DNA of 41,582 bases from Pseudomonadota bacterium (GTDB taxonomy: Bacteria; Pseudomonadota; Alphaproteobacteria; SMXQ01): positions 63,647 through 105,228 of the forward strand of contig JADFJG010000001.1 in the NCBI GenBank assembly GCA_022566265.1. The letters run 5' to 3'. Positions 3,383 through 17,560 of this stretch are shown in pieces. The first letter of the stretch is position 1, and the number at the start of each line of letters is the position of its first letter. The position numbers and the translations under genes were made by a program. Below the pieces are notes generated by a model. The model saw nothing but the letters and a program-made list of their open reading frames with translations, did no database searches and was not told where the DNA came from.

Positions 3383-5305
3383 ATGGCGCGGTTGAGGCTG
3401 TTCGCCCCCGACACCTGGTTTTCGGTCGGCGTCCGCCGGCGGCCCAAGGGCCGGCTCGCCTGGCTGATCACGCCGTTCGCCGCGGCGATCGCCGTCTACG
3501 TGCTGCTGGCGGCGGCGGTCATCATCATCGCTCCCTGGACCCTTACGGCGATTTTCCTTTGCGGCATGCTGGCGCTGGCCTTCCTTACCGTCGGCGCCTT
3601 TGCCGATTCCGACGCCGAGCGGCCATCGAAGATCGACTGGGCGCTCTCGGGCTTGAGCCTCGCCGTCGGCATCTATTTCGCGATCAACGCCGCCGCCATC
3701 GTCGATCGCATCTCGCTTCTCGATCCGCTTTCCGGGTGGGACCTGCTGTTCGCCACCGCGCTCTTCCTGTTGACCCTGGAGGTGACGCGGCGCACCACCG
3801 GCCTCGGGTTGACCGTCGTCGTGCTGATCTTCGTCGCCTACAACTTCCTCGGCCATATGCTGGGCGGCGTGCTCGGGCACGGCTACATAGACTACCGGCA
3901 CTTCATCGACATCATGGTGTTCACCACCGATGGCATCCTCGGCCTGCCGGTGCGCGTCGCCGCGACCTACGCCTTCCTGTTCGTCCTCTTCGGCACCGTG
4001 CTTGGCTTCGCCGGCGGCGGCGACTTCTTCTTCGACATCGCCGCCGTGATCAGCGGCCGCCGGCCGGGGGGGCCGGCGAAGATCGCCGTCATCTCCTCGG
4101 GCCTTTTCGGCATGATCTCGGGCAGTCCCACCTCCGACGTGGTGACCACCGGCTCGATCACCATTCCGATCATGCGCCGGCTCGGCTATCACCGCGCGCT
4201 GGCGGGCGCGGTCGAGGTCGCGGCCTCCACGGGCGGTTCCCTGGTGCCCCCGGTGATGGGCTCGGCGGCCTTCATCATGGCCGAATATACCGGCATCGAG
4301 TATCGCGACATCGCCATCGCCGCCCTCCTGCCGGCGCTGCTCTATTACGTCTGCGTCTACGCCCAGGTCCACTTCCTCTCGCTCAAGATCGGCTTGGCGC
4401 GACTGGACGAGGACCAGGTTCCCAGGCTTTGGACGACGCTGCGTCGTGGCGGGCTGTTCTTCGTGCCGCTGGTGGTGCTGACGGCGTTCCTGCTCGCCGG
4501 TTATACGCCGACGATGGCGGCGGTGTGGGGCACGGTGTCGATCCTCGCCGTCGCCGGCTTGCGGAAGCACTCGCGCGTCGGGCCGGTCAAGCTGTTCAAG
4601 GCGCTGGCCGAGACCAGCTACCGCATGGTGCCGGTGGCCGGGGCCTGCGCCGCCGCCGGACTGGTCATCGCCGGCATCACCATGACCGGACTGGCGCTCA
4701 AATTCGCCCACGTGATCTACGCCATCACCGACGCCCAGGTCTTCCCCTCGCTGCTCATCGCCGCCGCCCTGACCATCGTGCTCGGCCTCGGCATGCCGAC
4801 GCCGAGCGCCTATGTCCTCGCCGCCGTCCTGCTGGGGCCGCTGCTCGCCGATCTCGAGGTGCCGGTGTTATCGGCCCATCTGTTCCTGCTCTATTACGCG
4901 GTGATGTCGGCGATCACGCCGCCGGTGGCGGTGGCGGCCTACGCCGCCTCGTCCCTCGCCGAGGCCAATCCGCTCCATATCGCCGTCCTCGCGGTACGCC
5001 TGGCGCTGGCCGCCTTCATCGTGCCATTCGCCTTCGTCTACGGGCCGGAGCTGTTGCTCGTCGGCTCGGCGGGCGGCATCGCCGTCGCCTTCGCGACCGC
5101 GGTCGCCGGCGTCATCTGCCTGGCGCTGGCGGTCGAGGGTTACTGGAGAAGCGCCCTTCCCTGGTGGGCGCGGGGGTTGCTGACGGCCGCCGGGGGCTGT
5201 TTCCTGGCGCCGTGGACTCTCGGTATCCTCATCGGCGCCGCCCTCGCCGCCATCGCCCTGGCGTCGTCCACGGATCGGTGGCGAACCCGCCGCGGTGAGG
5301 CGTGA
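3383..5305 (+). CDS. TRAP transporter 4TM/12TM fused permease (TAXI type)
   Basis: GGPAKIAVISSGLFGMISGS, EVAASTGGSLVPPVMGSAAFIMAE, LGLGMPTPSAY and SAITPPVAVAAY motifs. Confidence 0.93.
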   Translation: MARLRLFAPDTWFSVGVRRRPKGRLAWLITPFAAAIAVYVLLAAAVIIIAPWTLTAIFLCGMLALAFLTVGAFADSDAERPSKIDWALSGLSLAVGIYFAINAAAIVDRISLLDPLSGWDLLFATALFLLTLEVTRRTTGLGLTVVVLIFVAYNFLGHMLGGVLGHGYIDYRHFIDIMVFTTDGILGLPVRVAATYAFLFVLFGTVLGFAGGGDFFFDIAAVISGRRPGGPAKIAVISSGLFGMISGSPTSDVVTTGSITIPIMRRLGYHRALAGAVEVAASTGGSLVPPVMGSAAFIMAEYTGIEYRDIAIAALLPALLYYVCVYAQVHFLSLKIGLARLDEDQVPRLWTTLRRGGLFFVPLVVLTAFLLAGYTPTMAAVWGTVSILAVAGLRKHSRVGPVKLFKALAETSYRMVPVAGACAAAGLVIAGITMTGLALKFAHVIYAITDAQVFPSLLIAAALTIVLGLGMPTPSAYVLAAVLLGPLLADLEVPVLSAHLFLLYYAVMSAITPPVAVAAYAASSLAEANPLHIAVLAVRLALAAFIVPFAFVYGPELLLVGSAGGIAVAFATAVAGVICLALAVEGYWRSALPWWARGLLTAAGGCFLAPWTLGILIGAALAAIALASSTDRWRTRRGEA

Positions 5306-10274: not shown

Positions 10275-11993
10275 ATGTCCGGGACCGGGACCGAGGCCGA
10301 GGAACGAAGCGGGGATTTCATCCGCGATATCATCCGCGCCGATCTCGATGCGGGGCGCGCCGATGCCGTCGTCACCCGCTTCCCGCCCGAGCCCAACGGC
10401 TATCTCCATATCGGCCACGCCAAGTCGATCTGCCTGAATTTCGCCATCGCCGATGAGTTCGGCGGGCGCTGCCACTTGCGCTTCGATGACACCAACCCGA
10501 CCCGGGAAGAGCACGAGTTCATCGCTTCCATCATCGATGACGTCCGCTGGCTCGGCTTCGACTGGGGCGATCGTCTCTATTTCGCCTCCGATAATTTCGA
10601 GACCCTCTACGGATGGGCCGAACACCTGATTTCAGCGGCCAAGGCCTATGTCGACGATCTCTCCCAGGACGAGATCCGCGACTATCGCGGCACCCTGACC
10701 GAGCCCGGCAGGAACAGCCCGTATCGCGATCGCGCGGTCGATGAGAACCTCGATCTCTTCCGCCGGATGCGCGCCGGCGAGTTCGCGGAAGGCGCCCGGG
10801 TGCTGCGGGTCAAGATCGACATGGCGTCGGGAAACATCAATATGCGCGACCCGGTGATCTACCGCATCCTGCACGCAGAGCACCCGCGGACGGGCAACGA
10901 CTGGTGCATCTACCCGACCTATGACTTCGCCCACGGCCAGTCGGACGCCATCGAAGGGGTGACCCATTCGCTCTGCACGCTTGAGTTCGAGGACCACCGC
11001 CCGCTCTACGATTGGCTGATCGACAATCTGCCGGTGCCCAGCCGCCCCCGGCAATACGAGTTCGCGCGCCTCAACCTGTTTTACACCGTGCTGTCGAAGC
11101 GGATACTCACCGGTCTCGTCGCCCGTGGCCAAGTCGGGGGCTGGGACGATCCACGGATGCCGACGATCTCGGGCCTCAGGCGGCGCGGCGTGCCGGCGGC
11201 GGCGATCCGCGACTTCATCAAGCGCGTCGGCATCTCGAAAAGCGACAATACGGTCGAGGTCGCGCTGCTCGATCACTGCATCCGCGAGGGGCTGAACAAG
11301 ACGGCCGAGCGCCGCCTCGCGGTGCTGCGGCCGCTCAAGGTGGTGATCGAGAATTACGATGAAGGCGCCGGGGAGGAGCTCACCGCCATCAACAACCCCG
11401 AGGACGCCGCCGCCGGCACGCGCACCGTGCCGTTTTCGCGCGAGATCTACATCGAGCGGGACGACTTCATGGAGGACCCGCCGAAGAAGTTCTTCCGCCT
11501 GGCGCCGGGGCGCGAGGTCAGGCTGCGTTACGCCTATTTCATCACCTGTACCGAGGTGATCAAGGACGATGCCGGCGAAGTGACCGAATTGCGCTGCACC
11601 TACGATCCGGCGACGCGCGGCGGCAACGCGCCCGACGGGCGCAAGGTGAGAGGGACCCTCCATTGGGTCTCCGCCGCCCATGGCGTCGAGGCCGAGGTCA
11701 GGCTTTTCGATCATCTCTTCACCCGCCCCGATCCGGGCAAGGAAGGCGACATAGCCGACGATCTCAACGCGGAATCGCTGACCGTGCTCAAGCATTGCCG
11801 GCTGGAACCGGCGCTGGCCGACGCCCGGCCGGGCGAGACCCTGCAGTTCGAGCGCCAGGGCTATTTCTGCCTCGATACGGACTCCTCGCCCGACAAGCTG
11901 GTGTTCAACCGCACCGTCGCGCTTCGCGACAGCTGGGCGAAGATTCAAGGAAAAGGAAAGGGTGGGCGAAGGCCACAGTTCCCATTATCATAG
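10275..11993 (+). CDS. glnS: Glutamine--tRNA ligase
   Basis: [23 protein letters not shown] (HIGH), [13 protein letters not shown] (KMSKS equivalent), [21 protein letters not shown]. Confidence 0.96.
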
Positions 11994-12263
11994 GCGGTGT
12001 GATGTCTGATCGTCGGCTGCGCGCTCGAGCACTTCCACCTGCCTCAGCACGAGCAAGATGGACTCCTCGCTATGAACGCCTCGCTCAAGGACCAGATTAT
12101 TGCTAGTAGGGGGGCGAGGCGCCTCTAGCCACCAGCCTGAGTGCCTAGTTCTCGCTAGGTTGTTGCCAAGCGGTTTGTGCGAAGGTGGCTCGCCAGCACC
12201 TCTCCGACTTGGCTCTCTTATGAACTGAACTGTAGCGTGATGAGTGTCGGTTACGACTACCTA

Positions 12264-14870
12264 ATGCAGATTATTGAGCCCGCCGCATCGAGAGAGCATC
12301 GGCTCTCAGCAATCCGCGGGTTCGCAGAGGAACTCGGTTGGACACCGAGCTATGAAATAGAACTCCCGCTTGGGGTGGATGCGGCGAAAAATCACCTCGT
12401 GGTCGAGCATGGGTTAGAGAATGCAGCCGTTTTATCTTTTCTCGACTTCCCAGCACGGTCTTCTGATCTAGACGGCGACGCTCTTCGTTCGCTTCTTACA
12501 TTGTCATACAATAACCTCGTCGAATGGCATGCTTTTGTTTCAGGCTCCGAGGTCAGATATATTAACAATCTTACCGACCCTCATGTTGACGTCATACAAC
12601 CTATCTCTCGTTCAAACATCACTCCTATTTCCGATGGGTACTTTGATGAGCTGTGGCGCCAACATCGTTACAAACGAAGTATTGTAAGTTGCGACGATTT
12701 ATTGATCCATACAATTTCCCGTTGGAAGAGAATTTTAAAAGCCGACTATCACGGTCTCATCGACAACAAGAACATATCTGCCTTGTTCAATGCGATTATT
12801 TTTGTGCGCGGTTGTGAAGACCACATCGGTACGTACAAAAAGAGAACGACGAAAATATTGCTTGAATTGTTATCGGGGATCAAAACTAGGGAAATTGATC
12901 TTGCTGCAATTATAAACGATTCATTTCAAGCCTTGGAAATATCATATAATATAGAGACTCTCTTAGATTTCGAAAACTTGGCTGTGTTCTCGACCCTTGA
13001 TAAATCGACTGCATATGACTTATTCAAAGATTTTTATAGACCTTCTGTATCTCCATATGAATTCAATTTCGCTTTTATGTCCAAACATGCACTTAGTCGA
13101 ATTTATGAAAAATATGTTTCCGTATTGGAATTCGATGAGAAGAGTGATGGTCAGCTGAGCTTCATTCCAACCGTGCCCGTTGAGCGACCAACAACCAAGA
13201 TTGGTGCAATTTATACACCTCAATTTATTGCAAGTTTTTTTGCTCGGTATGTACGCGACAACATGACCCCTAGGGCATTTCGGAAATTCCGCTCGTTCGA
13301 TCCGGCTTGTGGCTCAGGAATTTTTCTAAGAACATTGCTTGAATTACAATGCGATCCGCTTGTGCCGGATGTAACGCCGCAAACAATCCAGAATAGTTTT
13401 GCTTCGATATATGGAATCGATCGCGATCCAAACGCATGCCATGCTACAAGGCTATCGCTATCTCTCTTACATTTGGTCGCTACAGGGCGTTTACCAGAAC
13501 AAATTAACGTTCAGATCGCAGACGCCGTAGAATTGGCGTTAAAAGATCGGCTTGAACCGCACTCTTTCGACGTGATATTGGCCAATCCCCCGTATATAAA
13601 GCTTGAGCATTTGACTGAAGAAGAAAGAATCATTTATGGACAATATTTGAAGGAAGATGATGTTGGTCGGATCGATTCATATATCGCGTTTACAAAATTG
13701 TGCTTGGAGAAGGTTGAGGAAGGAGGATTTGTATGTTTGGTCTTACCTCAGAGCTTTCTTTTCGCAGATAACACTAGATTTTTAAGACAAAAAGTTTCGC
13801 AACAATTCGATGTGCGGTGCTTAGTTGACCTATCATCCGTACAAGTATTCGAAGATGTAGGAGTATCGAATGTCTTGCTGATTGTACAACGGAAATTACG
13901 CGGCGTAAGTGAGCGGGTTAAGGCGCAAATAGTAAGGTGTCAAGAATTTGTCGGTGCGTCATTACAAGCGTGCTTAAACGGTAAATCAATAGACACGCCA
14001 TATTATAATGTATTTCAGGTTGATCAGGCATGGTTTTCAAGAAAGGAGTGGGTAGTTCTGAGGCCTGATGAAATGCGTTTAACGGAAAGGCTTAACACTT
14101 TCCTGCCACTTTCTCATTTTCTGAACGTGCATCAAGGTGTTATAACGGGAGATGACGAGATATTTATTAGACGCGTTTCTGAAATCCCAACTGGCGATAG
14201 AAAACTATATCAGTCGTATCTGCCTGATCGACAAATCTTTCGGTATAAGCTCCCGTCGAGGTTGGAAGAAACAATTTTCTATCCCTTTCTTGATGGCGTT
14301 GCTCTCAATCATGAATATATAGAAACTAATTTTCCGCAAACCTGGACCTATTTATTGCAACACCAGCAGCGGCTCGAAGCAAGGAGCTCGGTAAGACGCG
14401 GCTATGCGCCTTGGTGGCGCCCGGTTTGGCCTAGGGATCCAAAGCGGATTCTTCGACCAAAGATTGTCTGTCCTCATTTGATGCTTGCACCAAGATTTGC
14501 GGTTGATACGAAAGGGACATTGTTAGTGAGCCGCTCGCCATTTTTGATTTCTAAATCATCTGAGGAAGAAATCACGTTTCTTAAATTTTTCTGTGCGATT
14601 CTAAACTCTACGGTTGTCCAATGGTACATATCGCGTCATTCGTACAAATATAGTAGAGGTTACCATAGAATTGAAGTTAGCTTGCTTAAAAACGTCCCTG
14701 CGCCTAACCCGGCTGCTATAAGTAAACAGTTGATGAACAGGGTTATTAGTTTGGTTGATGATTGCATAGCGTTGGGCCCTACGCCACAGAAGGAAGAGGA
14801 GATTGACAAGATAGTGTCGGATATCTACGAACTTTCAACCGAAGAGAAAAAAATCATCTACGGAGAATAG
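12264..14870 (+). CDS. N6-adenine DNA methyltransferase with type IIG/Eco57I-like architecture (N-terminal nuclease-like domain, MTase, TaqI-C-like specificity domain)
   Basis: GAIYTPQFI (motif X), FDPACGSGIFL (motif I), IYGIDRD, FDVILANPPY (motif IV), C-terminal PKI...FAVD...ILNS segments. Start could be 12177-12264. Confidence 0.88.
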   Translation: MQIIEPAASREHRLSAIRGFAEELGWTPSYEIELPLGVDAAKNHLVVEHGLENAAVLSFLDFPARSSDLDGDALRSLLTLSYNNLVEWHAFVSGSEVRYINNLTDPHVDVIQPISRSNITPISDGYFDELWRQHRYKRSIVSCDDLLIHTISRWKRILKADYHGLIDNKNISALFNAIIFVRGCEDHIGTYKKRTTKILLELLSGIKTREIDLAAIINDSFQALEISYNIETLLDFENLAVFSTLDKSTAYDLFKDFYRPSVSPYEFNFAFMSKHALSRIYEKYVSVLEFDEKSDGQLSFIPTVPVERPTTKIGAIYTPQFIASFFARYVRDNMTPRAFRKFRSFDPACGSGIFLRTLLELQCDPLVPDVTPQTIQNSFASIYGIDRDPNACHATRLSLSLLHLVATGRLPEQINVQIADAVELALKDRLEPHSFDVILANPPYIKLEHLTEEERIIYGQYLKEDDVGRIDSYIAFTKLCLEKVEEGGFVCLVLPQSFLFADNTRFLRQKVSQQFDVRCLVDLSSVQVFEDVGVSNVLLIVQRKLRGVSERVKAQIVRCQEFVGASLQACLNGKSIDTPYYNVFQVDQAWFSRKEWVVLRPDEMRLTERLNTFLPLSHFLNVHQGVITGDDEIFIRRVSEIPTGDRKLYQSYLPDRQIFRYKLPSRLEETIFYPFLDGVALNHEYIETNFPQTWTYLLQHQQRLEARSSVRRGYAPWWRPVWPRDPKRILRPKIVCPHLMLAPRFAVDTKGTLLVSRSPFLISKSSEEEITFLKFFCAILNSTVVQWYISRHSYKYSRGYHRIEVSLLKNVPAPNPAAISKQLMNRVISLVDDCIALGPTPQKEEEIDKIVSDIYELSTEEKKIIYGE

Positions 14871-14878
14871 ATTGAGAT

Positions 14879-15427
14879 ATGATATTGCTCACTTCAGAGA
14901 AAATGAGATCGCGAACACCGGAATTGCAGAATTTATTTTCTGCATTGATAAGGTTTCAGCCAGCCCAGATATTTTTTCGAAGTCACCATACCCAGATTTT
15001 CACTGGGCTTGGCCCCGATATCGTTGGAACCAACTTGAGAGAAGCGCGTCATCCTAGTCGAGTCAGACATGTTTTCATTAATTATTTTGAAGTTTGGAGT
15101 TCGTTGGACGGCGGCAAACGGTATGCGCTGGATCGTGCGTACTTTCACCTTGATATACCTCGTGCTGATGGGACAGGAGATGAAGAACTTTTGGCGCTAC
15201 ATTGTGACCCGAACACTGATCCGTTAGACCCGTCTTATTCCTATAAACGGGGACCACATATGCACTTGGCATTTAAGAGCTATGACTTTCATAAATCTCA
15301 CATCGCACTGTGTATTCAGAATGTTGAACAAACGTGCTCGGACTTCAGAATCTTTTCCAAAGCCTTTTCCGCCCTAATAGATATGATCAATATAGAATTT
15401 CTGGAACGGTTAAAGTCGAACTTATAA
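14879..15427 (+). CDS. Hypothetical 182-aa protein with an HxDP...PHxH motif, tightly linked to the methyltransferase
   Basis: Starts 8 nt after the MTase stop; same AT-rich composition; LLALHCDP...YKRGPHMHL...HKSH. Confidence 0.75.
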   Translation: MILLTSEKMRSRTPELQNLFSALIRFQPAQIFFRSHHTQIFTGLGPDIVGTNLREARHPSRVRHVFINYFEVWSSLDGGKRYALDRAYFHLDIPRADGTGDEELLALHCDPNTDPLDPSYSYKRGPHMHLAFKSYDFHKSHIALCIQNVEQTCSDFRIFSKAFSALIDMINIEFLERLKSNL

Positions 15428-15534
15428 TAGCGGCCGACTCGTCGAGTAACGTAGAATTCATGGCATTCTTTGCATCTGTAGCAACTTGACATCCGGCACC
15501 ACCCCGTAACCATTCTTGGGAGGCAAGGCCGGAG

Positions 15535-17229: not shown

Positions 17230-17560
17230 GTGGCCATGGGGCGGACGGAGGTCACGCCGTTTCCCGACAACCCCTGGCACCGGATACGGAAAGCCGCCGG
17301 CATCGAGGAAGTCCGACCGCACGATCTCCGCCGCGCGGTCGGCTCGTGGCTCACACAAGGCGGGGTCGATCTCAACCGCGTCAAGGACGCCCTGCGCCAC
17401 GCCAACATCGAGACGACGTCGATCTACGCCCCTGGGTGAGGACGCGGCGAAGCCGGTCATGGAGGAACACGCCAAGCGCATCATCGAGGCCGCGGGCAAA
17501 CATAGGCCGGCCGAGGTTGTCGGCCTTGACCGTCAGAAGTCGAACTCGAACTTGACGCGG
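17230..17560 (+). pseudogene. Tyrosine recombinase/integrase C-terminal remnant, frameshifted
   Basis: WHRIRKAAGIEEVRPHDLRR...LRHANIETTSIYA carries the HxxR, H and catalytic Y boxes. A frameshift at ~17431 continues as LGEDAAKPVMEEHAKRII. The N-terminal domains are absent. Confidence 0.85.

Follow-up and report, generated by a model that had tools for sequence, protein, structure and literature searches.

Restriction-modification (RM) enzymes of types IIG and IIL, such as BpuSI (3S1S), MmeI (5HR4) and DrdV (7LO5), are single-chain proteins which act alone. They are treated as one-protein systems, and automatic annotation calls them 'N-6 DNA methylase' or 'Eco57I domain protein'. Two other described designs are relevant here. 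M.BseCI (7QW5) and CamA (7LNI/8CXZ) are methylases of ~580 amino acids (aa) built from a catalytic domain and a TaqI_C-type recognition domain. BtsI is a heterodimeric type IIS enzyme in which, as reported, the small subunit is inactive alone and becomes catalytic when bound to the large, DNA-recognising subunit (PMC2909958). The locus that we describe is an islet of ~3.5 kb in a 41,582-nucleotide stretch of the alphaproteobacterial contig JADFJG010000001.1 (assembly GCA_022566265.1; the whole stretch is called the window below), and it encodes a large protein similar in domain order and size to BpuSI, MmeI and DrdV, followed closely by a small one. Unlike the type IIG/IIL enzymes, the large protein is always accompanied by its small partner. 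It matches M.BseCI and CamA end to end over residues 316-863, while these lack its 310-aa front end, made of a nuclease fold and a helical part. The likeness of the pair to BtsI is one of concept only, and the large subunit of BtsI is not a methylase whereas the large protein here is. RM systems of type IIG ancestry, to which the pair may belong, are a known kind; what is new is the obligatory unannotated small partner and the replaced set of residues in the N-terminal domain (N-domain) of the large protein. The features are as follows.

11945..15517, no strand: inserted islet of ~3.5 kb, consisting of a 295 bp leader with 57% G+C content (GC) and two genes with 43% GC
12240..14870, + strand: large subunit gene, 876 aa, type IIG/IIL-like architecture, placed by the consensus start
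12264..12668, + strand: restriction-endonuclease-fold domain, residues 1-135, from the model, fold matches and conservation
12687..13139, + strand: helical connector, residues 142-292, from fold matches; contains LFNAIIFVRGCED and SKHALSRIYE
13194..13898, + strand: gamma-class N6-adenine methyltransferase catalytic domain, with motif I FDPACGSG at 13296-13319 and motif IV NPPY at 13584-13595
13899..14867, + strand: target-recognition region with a TaqI_C-type C-terminal domain, from Pfam and the continuous CamA/M.BseCI match
14879..15427, + strand: small partner gene, 182 aa, unannotated family, from the list of open reading frames (ORFs) and conservation

Both ORFs are real genes, as the N-terminal part of the large protein has 468 relatives (E<=1e-3) and a profile of 25 diverse members of the small family finds 483 clusters at 50% identity, 443 of them at E<=1e-10. 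The large ORF is listed at 12177-14870 (+) with a GTG start. The preliminary description, made from the letters of the window, had the gene begin at the ATG at 12264, which would give an 868-aa product. This ATG is in frame; it is, however, probably internal and eight codons late, since the consensus N-terminus of the relatives (MxxxYxxxxxIT) agrees with the ATG at 12240, which reads MSVGYDYLMQII. For this reason we place the gene at 12240-14870, and the resulting 876 aa is the usual length in the family. Residue numbers of the large protein are nevertheless counted from the ATG at 12264. The stop of the large gene and the ATG of the small one are separated by 8 nt, and GGAGAA lies 12 nt upstream of the small ATG. 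A scan of the islet for promoters and terminators gave fewer sites than in shuffled sequence. The GC profile of the window has a trough at ~12.0-15.5 kb (41-48% versus 60-69% around it), with the large gene at 42.9% and the small gene at 42.8%, compared to 64.5% in the rest of the window upstream and 63.0% downstream. The proposal of a two-gene pair in foreign DNA is therefore borne out by the ORFs, by the drop from ~63-64.5% to ~43% GC and by the hundreds of relatives.

Linkage and co-divergence of the two genes

The association between the genes was counted from both sides. A search with the N-domain found 231 metagenome stretches, the best 80 of which were fetched for linkage counts; 61 of these extend to the C-terminus of the methylase, and in 59 the sequence continues for 300 nt or more beyond it. 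The small gene comes next, on the same strand, in all 59 informative loci, which collapse to 51 when those at least 95% identical are merged, and a solitary methylase was found in none of them. Most of the 19 other loci stop inside the methylase, and one of them (L053) also carries the small gene. Starting from the small gene, the large gene is directly upstream in nine of the 10 genome loci, two of the nine being cut by contig ends; these loci come from Alphaproteobacteria, Acidobacteriota (Terriglobales/Acidobacteriaceae), Chthoniobacteraceae, Fibrobacteres and Ignavibacteriota. The spacing is tight as well, with the predicted start of the small gene at -29 to +8 nt from the large-gene stop in 53 of 54 loci and modes at +1 and -4 (the ATGA overlap). 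When the ORFs of 90 aa or more in 89 loci were all compared with one another, no third recurrent gene emerged, the other apparent 'families' being antisense shadows of the methylase.

The two proteins also diverge together. Pairwise identity of the small protein tracks that of every domain of the large protein (r 0.85-0.89, 49 pairs), with the small protein diverging faster (mean identity 35% versus 44-52% for the large-protein domains). The correlation is equal for all domains and so is uninformative on domain-specific co-evolution. Linkage and co-divergence together argue that the two genes are one evolutionary unit. Conserved linkage was the point on which the preliminary description had made its own case depend, and it is what both the metagenome (59 of 59) and the genome (9 of 10) loci display. 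The usual understanding of a type IIG enzyme as one that acts alone, without an obligatory partner gene, does not describe this family.

Several loci depart from the standard arrangement. In L020 the methylase is truncated and the small gene is absent. L046 and L048, which form one cluster, have the methylase cut at profile position 416 and then an intact small gene, an internal deletion variant. In L088 the 3' end of a small gene precedes another large gene by ~3.5 kb, and two cassettes may lie there in tandem. The tenth of the genome loci has an orphan small gene, in an alphaproteobacterial metagenome-assembled genome (L001, 9983-10438); it is C-terminally truncated (151 aa, 39% identity), has no methylase nearby and is probably the remnant of a decayed cassette.

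A methylase with a non-canonical N-terminal domain

All of the motifs quoted in the preliminary description are present in the two proteins. In the large one FDPACGSG occupies residues 345-352, NPPY 441-444, LGW 24-26 and LTLSY 78-82, while KNHLVVEHGLENAAVLSFL corresponds to residues 42-60 and LFNAIIFVRGCED to residues 174-186. The methylase motifs had been called intact, in agreement with Pfam matches well above the cut-offs to Eco57I (1.1e-19, 71.7 bits, cut-off 25.3), N6_Mtase (8.3e-16, 58.6 bits, cut-off 20.4) and, over residues 709-812, TaqI_C (1.5e-9, 38.6 bits, cut-off 26.5). Residues 1-310 have no match in Pfam. The best PADLOC models are plain type II methylases, and the type IIG models cover the methylase part only. 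The protein is not a member of the NCBIfam families BREX-1 PglX (52.2 bits versus a cut-off of 500) or MADS MAD2 (33.5 bits versus 720). Since a profile of 44 relatives matches both CamA (6.3e-46) and M.BseCI (1.2e-45) in the PDB over residues 316-863, the back two thirds of the large protein is, by sequence, an adenine methylase of the ordinary BseCI/CamA type, complete with recognition domain. Variation in the recognition domain does not exceed that in the rest of the protein and so is uninformative on specificity.

The front end was modelled in AlphaFold2 (residues 1-314, predicted local distance difference test score, pLDDT, 89.7). Residues 1-135 match the nuclease domain of BpuSI (Z 8.4, root-mean-square deviation 3.5, 123 residues aligned), two type I HsdR nuclease domains (Z 7.6 and 7.0), tRNA-splicing endonucleases (Z 6.8, deviation 2.8, 81 aligned), Hjc resolvases (Z ~6) and DrdV (Z 5.6). 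Residues 142-292 match the N-terminal helical domains of HsdM proteins (PacII M, Z 9.2; StySJI HsdM, Z 8.8) and the connector of MmeI (its residues 160-318, Z 6.6). These Z values are at or just above the range which the tool states that chance can reach, the top Foldseek matches are weak (DrdV, E 3e-3; BsaXI, E 2e-2), and a sequence-profile search of the PDB with the N-domain gave chance-level matches only. The fold assignment is nevertheless credible because the nuclease domains all fall on residues 1-135 and the HsdM and MmeI connectors all on 142-292. The order of domains in the single polypeptide (nuclease fold, helical connector, gamma N6-adenine methylase, C-terminal recognition domain) is that of type IIG enzymes, so that the layout proposed from the motifs is upheld by the model.

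Where this domain differs from known nucleases is in its conserved residues. Within 1-135, the residues invariant in 44 aligned relatives are F20, W26, P28, H44, E48, G50, A55, F59, S81, N83, W88, H89 and N102. At least 90% conserved in 108 relatives are F20, A21, W26, P28, S29, H44, V47, E48, H49, G50 and L51 in the first half and A55, F59, L77, L78, S81, Y82, N83, N84, L85, W88, H89 and N102 in the rest. There is no aspartate and no lysine among the residues conserved at 90% or more in either set (108 and 44 relatives), and E48 is the sole conserved acid. BpuSI cuts with E21, D60, E76 and K78 (PMC3185434). With no conserved Asp or Lys and one conserved acid against this set, the alignments indicate that the classical PD-(D/E)xK triad is missing from the N-domain, just as had been noticed from the single sequence, where the expected D...(D/E)xK could not be seen.

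The conclusion drawn at that time, that the nuclease domain is dead, was overstated. By mean column identity the N-domain (0.40) is level with the recognition domain (0.40-0.43) and not far below the connector (0.43), the HLVVEHG and SYNNLVxWH blocks are nearly invariant, and the domain has its own set of histidine, glutamate, asparagine and tyrosine residues. Because it is conserved equally with the recognition domain and retains these blocks, we regard the N-domain, on the alignments, as non-canonical and under strong purifying selection and not as a decaying relic. Inactive restriction-fold domains have been argued, in a recent comparative paper, often to be nucleic-acid sensors in defence systems (PMC12839542), and by analogy nucleic-acid sensing is one possible role here.

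The same conservation raises the question of whether the large protein could be a complete single-chain type IIG enzyme, its N-domain having a His/Glu-based active site and the small protein being an accessory such as a timing regulator, an assembly factor or a sensor of DNA ends or modification. H44, E48, H49, Y82, N83, N84, H89 and N102 are all at least 94% conserved in a domain as constrained as the recognition domain, the fold matches include His-dependent tRNA-splicing endonucleases beside BpuSI and HsdR, and BpuSI has a histidine triad adjoining its active site (PMC3185434). However, since E48 is the only conserved acid in residues 1-135, the usual two-carboxylate metal site is missing. 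Moreover, the invariant residues of the small protein look enzyme-like and not regulator-like, and Pfam scans find in it no helix-turn-helix or other recognised binding domain. We therefore consider a self-sufficient large protein unlikely.

The small protein and the possible source of cleavage

The two motifs by which the small protein had been singled out, LLALHCDP (residues 104-111) and GPHMH (125-129), contain some of its best conserved positions. Across 141 representatives of the family E71, W73 and H127 are 100% conserved, H108, H129 and H141 99%, R12, Y69 and Y88 96%, D110 94%, Y122 92% and K123 91%. Judged from conservation, the histidines, aspartate and glutamate are a set of the kind that binds divalent metal in hydrolases and nucleases. 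A word search found 16 metagenomic relatives without names, the best 150 matches of the family profile are all stand-alone proteins, mostly of ~170-200 aa with a few shorter fragments, and where relatives have a public name it is 'hypothetical protein'. The protein matches no family in Pfam, NCBIfam or PADLOC, and when 139 members were scanned against PHROGs and NCBIfam every hit was a singleton. In its model (pLDDT 83.7) N-terminal helices and a long C-terminal helix pack against an antiparallel sheet. None of the known restriction endonuclease folds (PD-(D/E)xK, HNH, GIY-YIG, PLD) is among the structural matches, and sequence-profile searches of the PDB with the small family, like the one with the N-domain, gave only chance-level hits (ribosomal S17 and S11 and Atg16 over all these searches).

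A loose resemblance to DUF6516/TumE or DUF2290 had been suggested for these motifs and was not supported by the searches: neither family is in the Pfam scan of 25 members at E<=10 (seven families in all), nor among the first 25 of 31 Pfam families in the scan of 139 members, with the proviso that HMMER filters drop very weak matches, so that a remote relation in fold may exist. As for the system as a whole, a match to an already named one, which would have counted against the preliminary description, was not found in PADLOC-DB 2.0.0, NCBIfam 20 or Pfam. A description of the pair was not found in full-text literature searches either, which is a weak negative, since supplements were outside the scope and a prior in-silico mention is possible. 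One more idea, that the small protein is a DNA mimic, was suggested by p32-like Foldseek matches and was rejected because the median isoelectric point of the family is ~7.8.

Broken copies of the pair are informative about how the two proteins depend on each other. The large gene is split in 12 of the 61 metagenome loci, which correspond to 8 of 53 distinct ones. In L002 it has a frameshift in the N-domain, and NCBI annotates an 800-aa remnant; in L004 it has two in-frame stops and in L010 frameshifts; in all three the small ORF is intact. The small gene is split in L026 and L036, and the ratio of broken large to broken small genes is about neutral given the fivefold difference in length. L018, L019, L022 and L027 share one large-gene allele with two frameshifts (99-100% identity); since it recurs in four separate metagenome records, this must be a real broken allele in nature and not a one-off assembly error. 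In single records assembly errors are possible, and so are silent inactivating point changes. With these caveats, the fact that the small gene can stay intact next to a methylase gene that is broken argues against an autonomous nuclease and fits a partner dependent on the large protein.

This observation bears directly on the conventional interpretation, in which the pair is an ordinary type II system, with the large protein as the protective methylase carrying an extra N-terminal module and the small one as an autonomous sequence-specific endonuclease whose family has yet to be characterised. It is notoriously hard to recognise restriction endonucleases from their sequence, and there are small ones with a histidine-metal centre. 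Tight coupling of a methylase gene to a following nuclease gene is common, and the methylase part is closest to the type II enzymes M.BseCI and CamA. An intact autonomous nuclease beside a broken methylase (L002, L004, L010; 8 of 53 distinct loci) should, however, be lethal, orphan methylases are absent from the 59 informative loci, and all relatives have kept the 310-aa type IIG-like front end. This reading is thus disfavoured, and we give it little credence.

What the small protein may resemble is indicated by recurring weak signals, which point, weakly, to the world of relaxase and primase 'palm' folds. Prim-pol 4 (PF18188) appears below threshold in 6 of 139 members (best E 0.016, with the cut-off of 25 bits not reached), Relaxase in one of 25 and VirD2 in one of 139 members, and there are weak Foldseek matches to herpesvirus UL52 primase (prob 0.28-0.69). 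PF18188 itself was sought in 401 genomes and found in none, the control genomes giving no match either. When the family was compared in hhalign with a profile of eight aligned relaxase N-domains, LaLHCDP...GPHlHv aligned onto relaxase motif III (H-x-D...H-x-H) with a 12-residue insertion, at a local P of 0.0014 and a probability of 17.7%; none of 40 column-shuffled controls reached this P, the best being 0.021. In terms of the MOB relaxase/HUH family (PF03432), motif III thus resembles H108-x-D110...P-H127-x-H129 of the small protein, differing from it by the insertion, by the lack of a fold match among those listed and by the catalytic tyrosine, for which no equivalent was identified. We take this as a resemblance at the level of a motif, chosen after the fact, and not as evidence of homology.

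It could still be that the pair is not a restriction system at all. The small protein would then be a relaxase/HUH-like, primase-like or non-nuclease effector, guided or gated by the methylase in an epigenetic or DNA-transaction module or an abortive-infection pair. The motif III alignment, the sub-threshold hits just listed and the mostly housekeeping neighbours of the pair are all compatible with such a role. However, the alignment has a low probability and fails globally, no relaxase, Rep or primase is among the 50 matches listed in a wide structural search (weakest Z 3.9), and the small family has no conserved tyrosine at the position used by HUH enzymes. The patchy, mobile, low-GC, presence-or-absence distribution is also the pattern of defence or selfish RM genes. 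A role outside restriction therefore appears improbable to us.

The interpretation that we favour, tentatively and at somewhat less than an even chance, is that the islet is a self-contained, horizontally moving two-subunit RM system derived from type IIG/IIL enzymes, in which the small protein either provides the cleavage activity or licenses it. The large protein would read the DNA sequence with its recognition domain and N6-methylate adenine in host DNA, while the conserved non-canonical N-domain, together with the helical connector, would act as a docking or licensing module. The divalent-metal centre of the small protein (H108/D110/H127/H129/H141/E71) would then cut unmethylated incoming DNA or, alternatively, the small protein would complete a composite active site. 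It is plausible that killing is delegated to the small protein in this way, as was proposed at the outset. Since alone it would find no DNA targets, the small protein would be harmless when the large gene is broken.

A more specific version is possible, although we are doubtful about it: the small protein may represent a new nuclease family with an undescribed fold. The three-histidine site of relaxases would be a remote relative of its metal centre (H-x-D...P-H-U-H plus E71/H141), or a case of convergence with it, and the small protein would be active only when docked on the re-purposed restriction-fold domain of a sequence-reading methylase. If so, this would be a distinct and widespread class of two-subunit RM systems, comprising at least 483 clusters at 50% identity in at least five phyla.

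A number of observations weigh against a cleaving or licensing small subunit. The invariant His/Glu set of the N-domain could be a non-canonical active site, with the small protein being something else, and the histidines of the small protein together with C109 could form a structural zinc site and not a catalytic one. H127, H129 and H141 lie in the least confident stretch of the model (residues 121-150, pLDDT ~58). Family, PDB and viral-structure searches recognised no nuclease family or fold for the small protein: the Foldseek and BFVD fold searches gave nothing at E<=1e-3, and the best VIA match (Med17, Z 6.8) is below the tool's stated chance range. A fused large-small form was not found when longer forms of the small protein were sought, which is weak evidence, and tblastn of the small protein against plasmid and phage collections gave no copy. 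The immediate neighbours of the pair are mostly housekeeping genes and not defence islands. Finally, methylation, cleavage and phage protection by the pair are themselves predictions from sequence. Structure prediction of a complex between residues 1-314 and the small protein had a score of 0.00 and so gave no verdict either way.

Whatever the exact function of the small protein, the family has a fixed second subunit and an N-domain in which the classical active site is replaced by other conserved residues. If the small protein is a nuclease, restriction enzymology would gain a new catalytic family, and with it perhaps a nicking or cutting module of practical use, targeted by a programmable methylase-type reader; many methylases annotated as 'orphan' in the genomes of soil and marine bacteria would also be explained. 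If it is not, a coupling as strict as this one still points to some activity linked to DNA methylation.

Mobility and surroundings of the islet

The islet sits between a class I Glu/Gln-tRNA synthetase gene on one side and an Ala_racemase_N/D-ser_dehydrat gene on the other. Among 31 genomes of the order the small gene is present only in that of the window and is absent from all 30 relatives. In a genome of the same genus (G014) both flanks are found at 93% identity and ~49 bp apart, which represents an empty site. Contigs of four public marine metagenome runs (X1-X4) were also compared with the locus. In X2 and X3 contigs join position 11944 to 15518 with 13 other letters between, in X4 they join 11944 to 15495 with 63 letters between, and a contig of X1 crosses the left junction with the islet. 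Islet-bearing and islet-less forms therefore clearly both exist in nature. The islet-less joints have depths of 53, 12 and 216 in X2, X3 and X4 and the islet bins a summed depth of 0-16, metagenome contig depths not being equivalent to cell fractions.

At the left border the islet DNA (11945-11993) encodes the last 16 codons of the synthetase ORF. The synthetase gene ends differently in G014 and in the islet-less contigs, so that the insertion has rewritten the C-terminal tail of the enzyme. No integrase, transposase, tRNA gene or flanking direct repeat belonging to the islet was found.

The wider setting of the pair was surveyed with 77 ORFs of at least 220 aa within ~1.3 kb of it, out of 154 flank ORFs. 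Their Pfam families are varied: the most frequent, RecA, short-chain dehydrogenases and radical SAM proteins, are each seen three times, and Mrr_cat twice. PADLOC gave single defence-type matches only (SoFic, AbiEi, Hhe, MzaA, DinG, UvrD/GajB-like). The cassette is thus found mainly among housekeeping genes, in the window as in the other loci, a setting more like that of many selfish RM cassettes than that of a constant member of defence islands.

Further downstream in the window, ~1.8 kb from the islet and outside it, a 69-aa ORF (17230-17436, +) matches only the C-terminal third of PF00589 (positions 114-166 of 172, E 3e-13) and is a remnant of a tyrosine recombinase. Synteny with G014 breaks at ~16658, and 16658-17198 matches another G014 contig at 92% identity; the break may be a contig end or a second variable spot beside the integrase remnant. 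Elsewhere in the genome of the window (G000), contig C115 carries two MobA/VirD2-type relaxase genes (2324-2758 and 4591-4944; E 2.1e-23 and 3.9e-13), which suggests a conjugative or mobilisable element.

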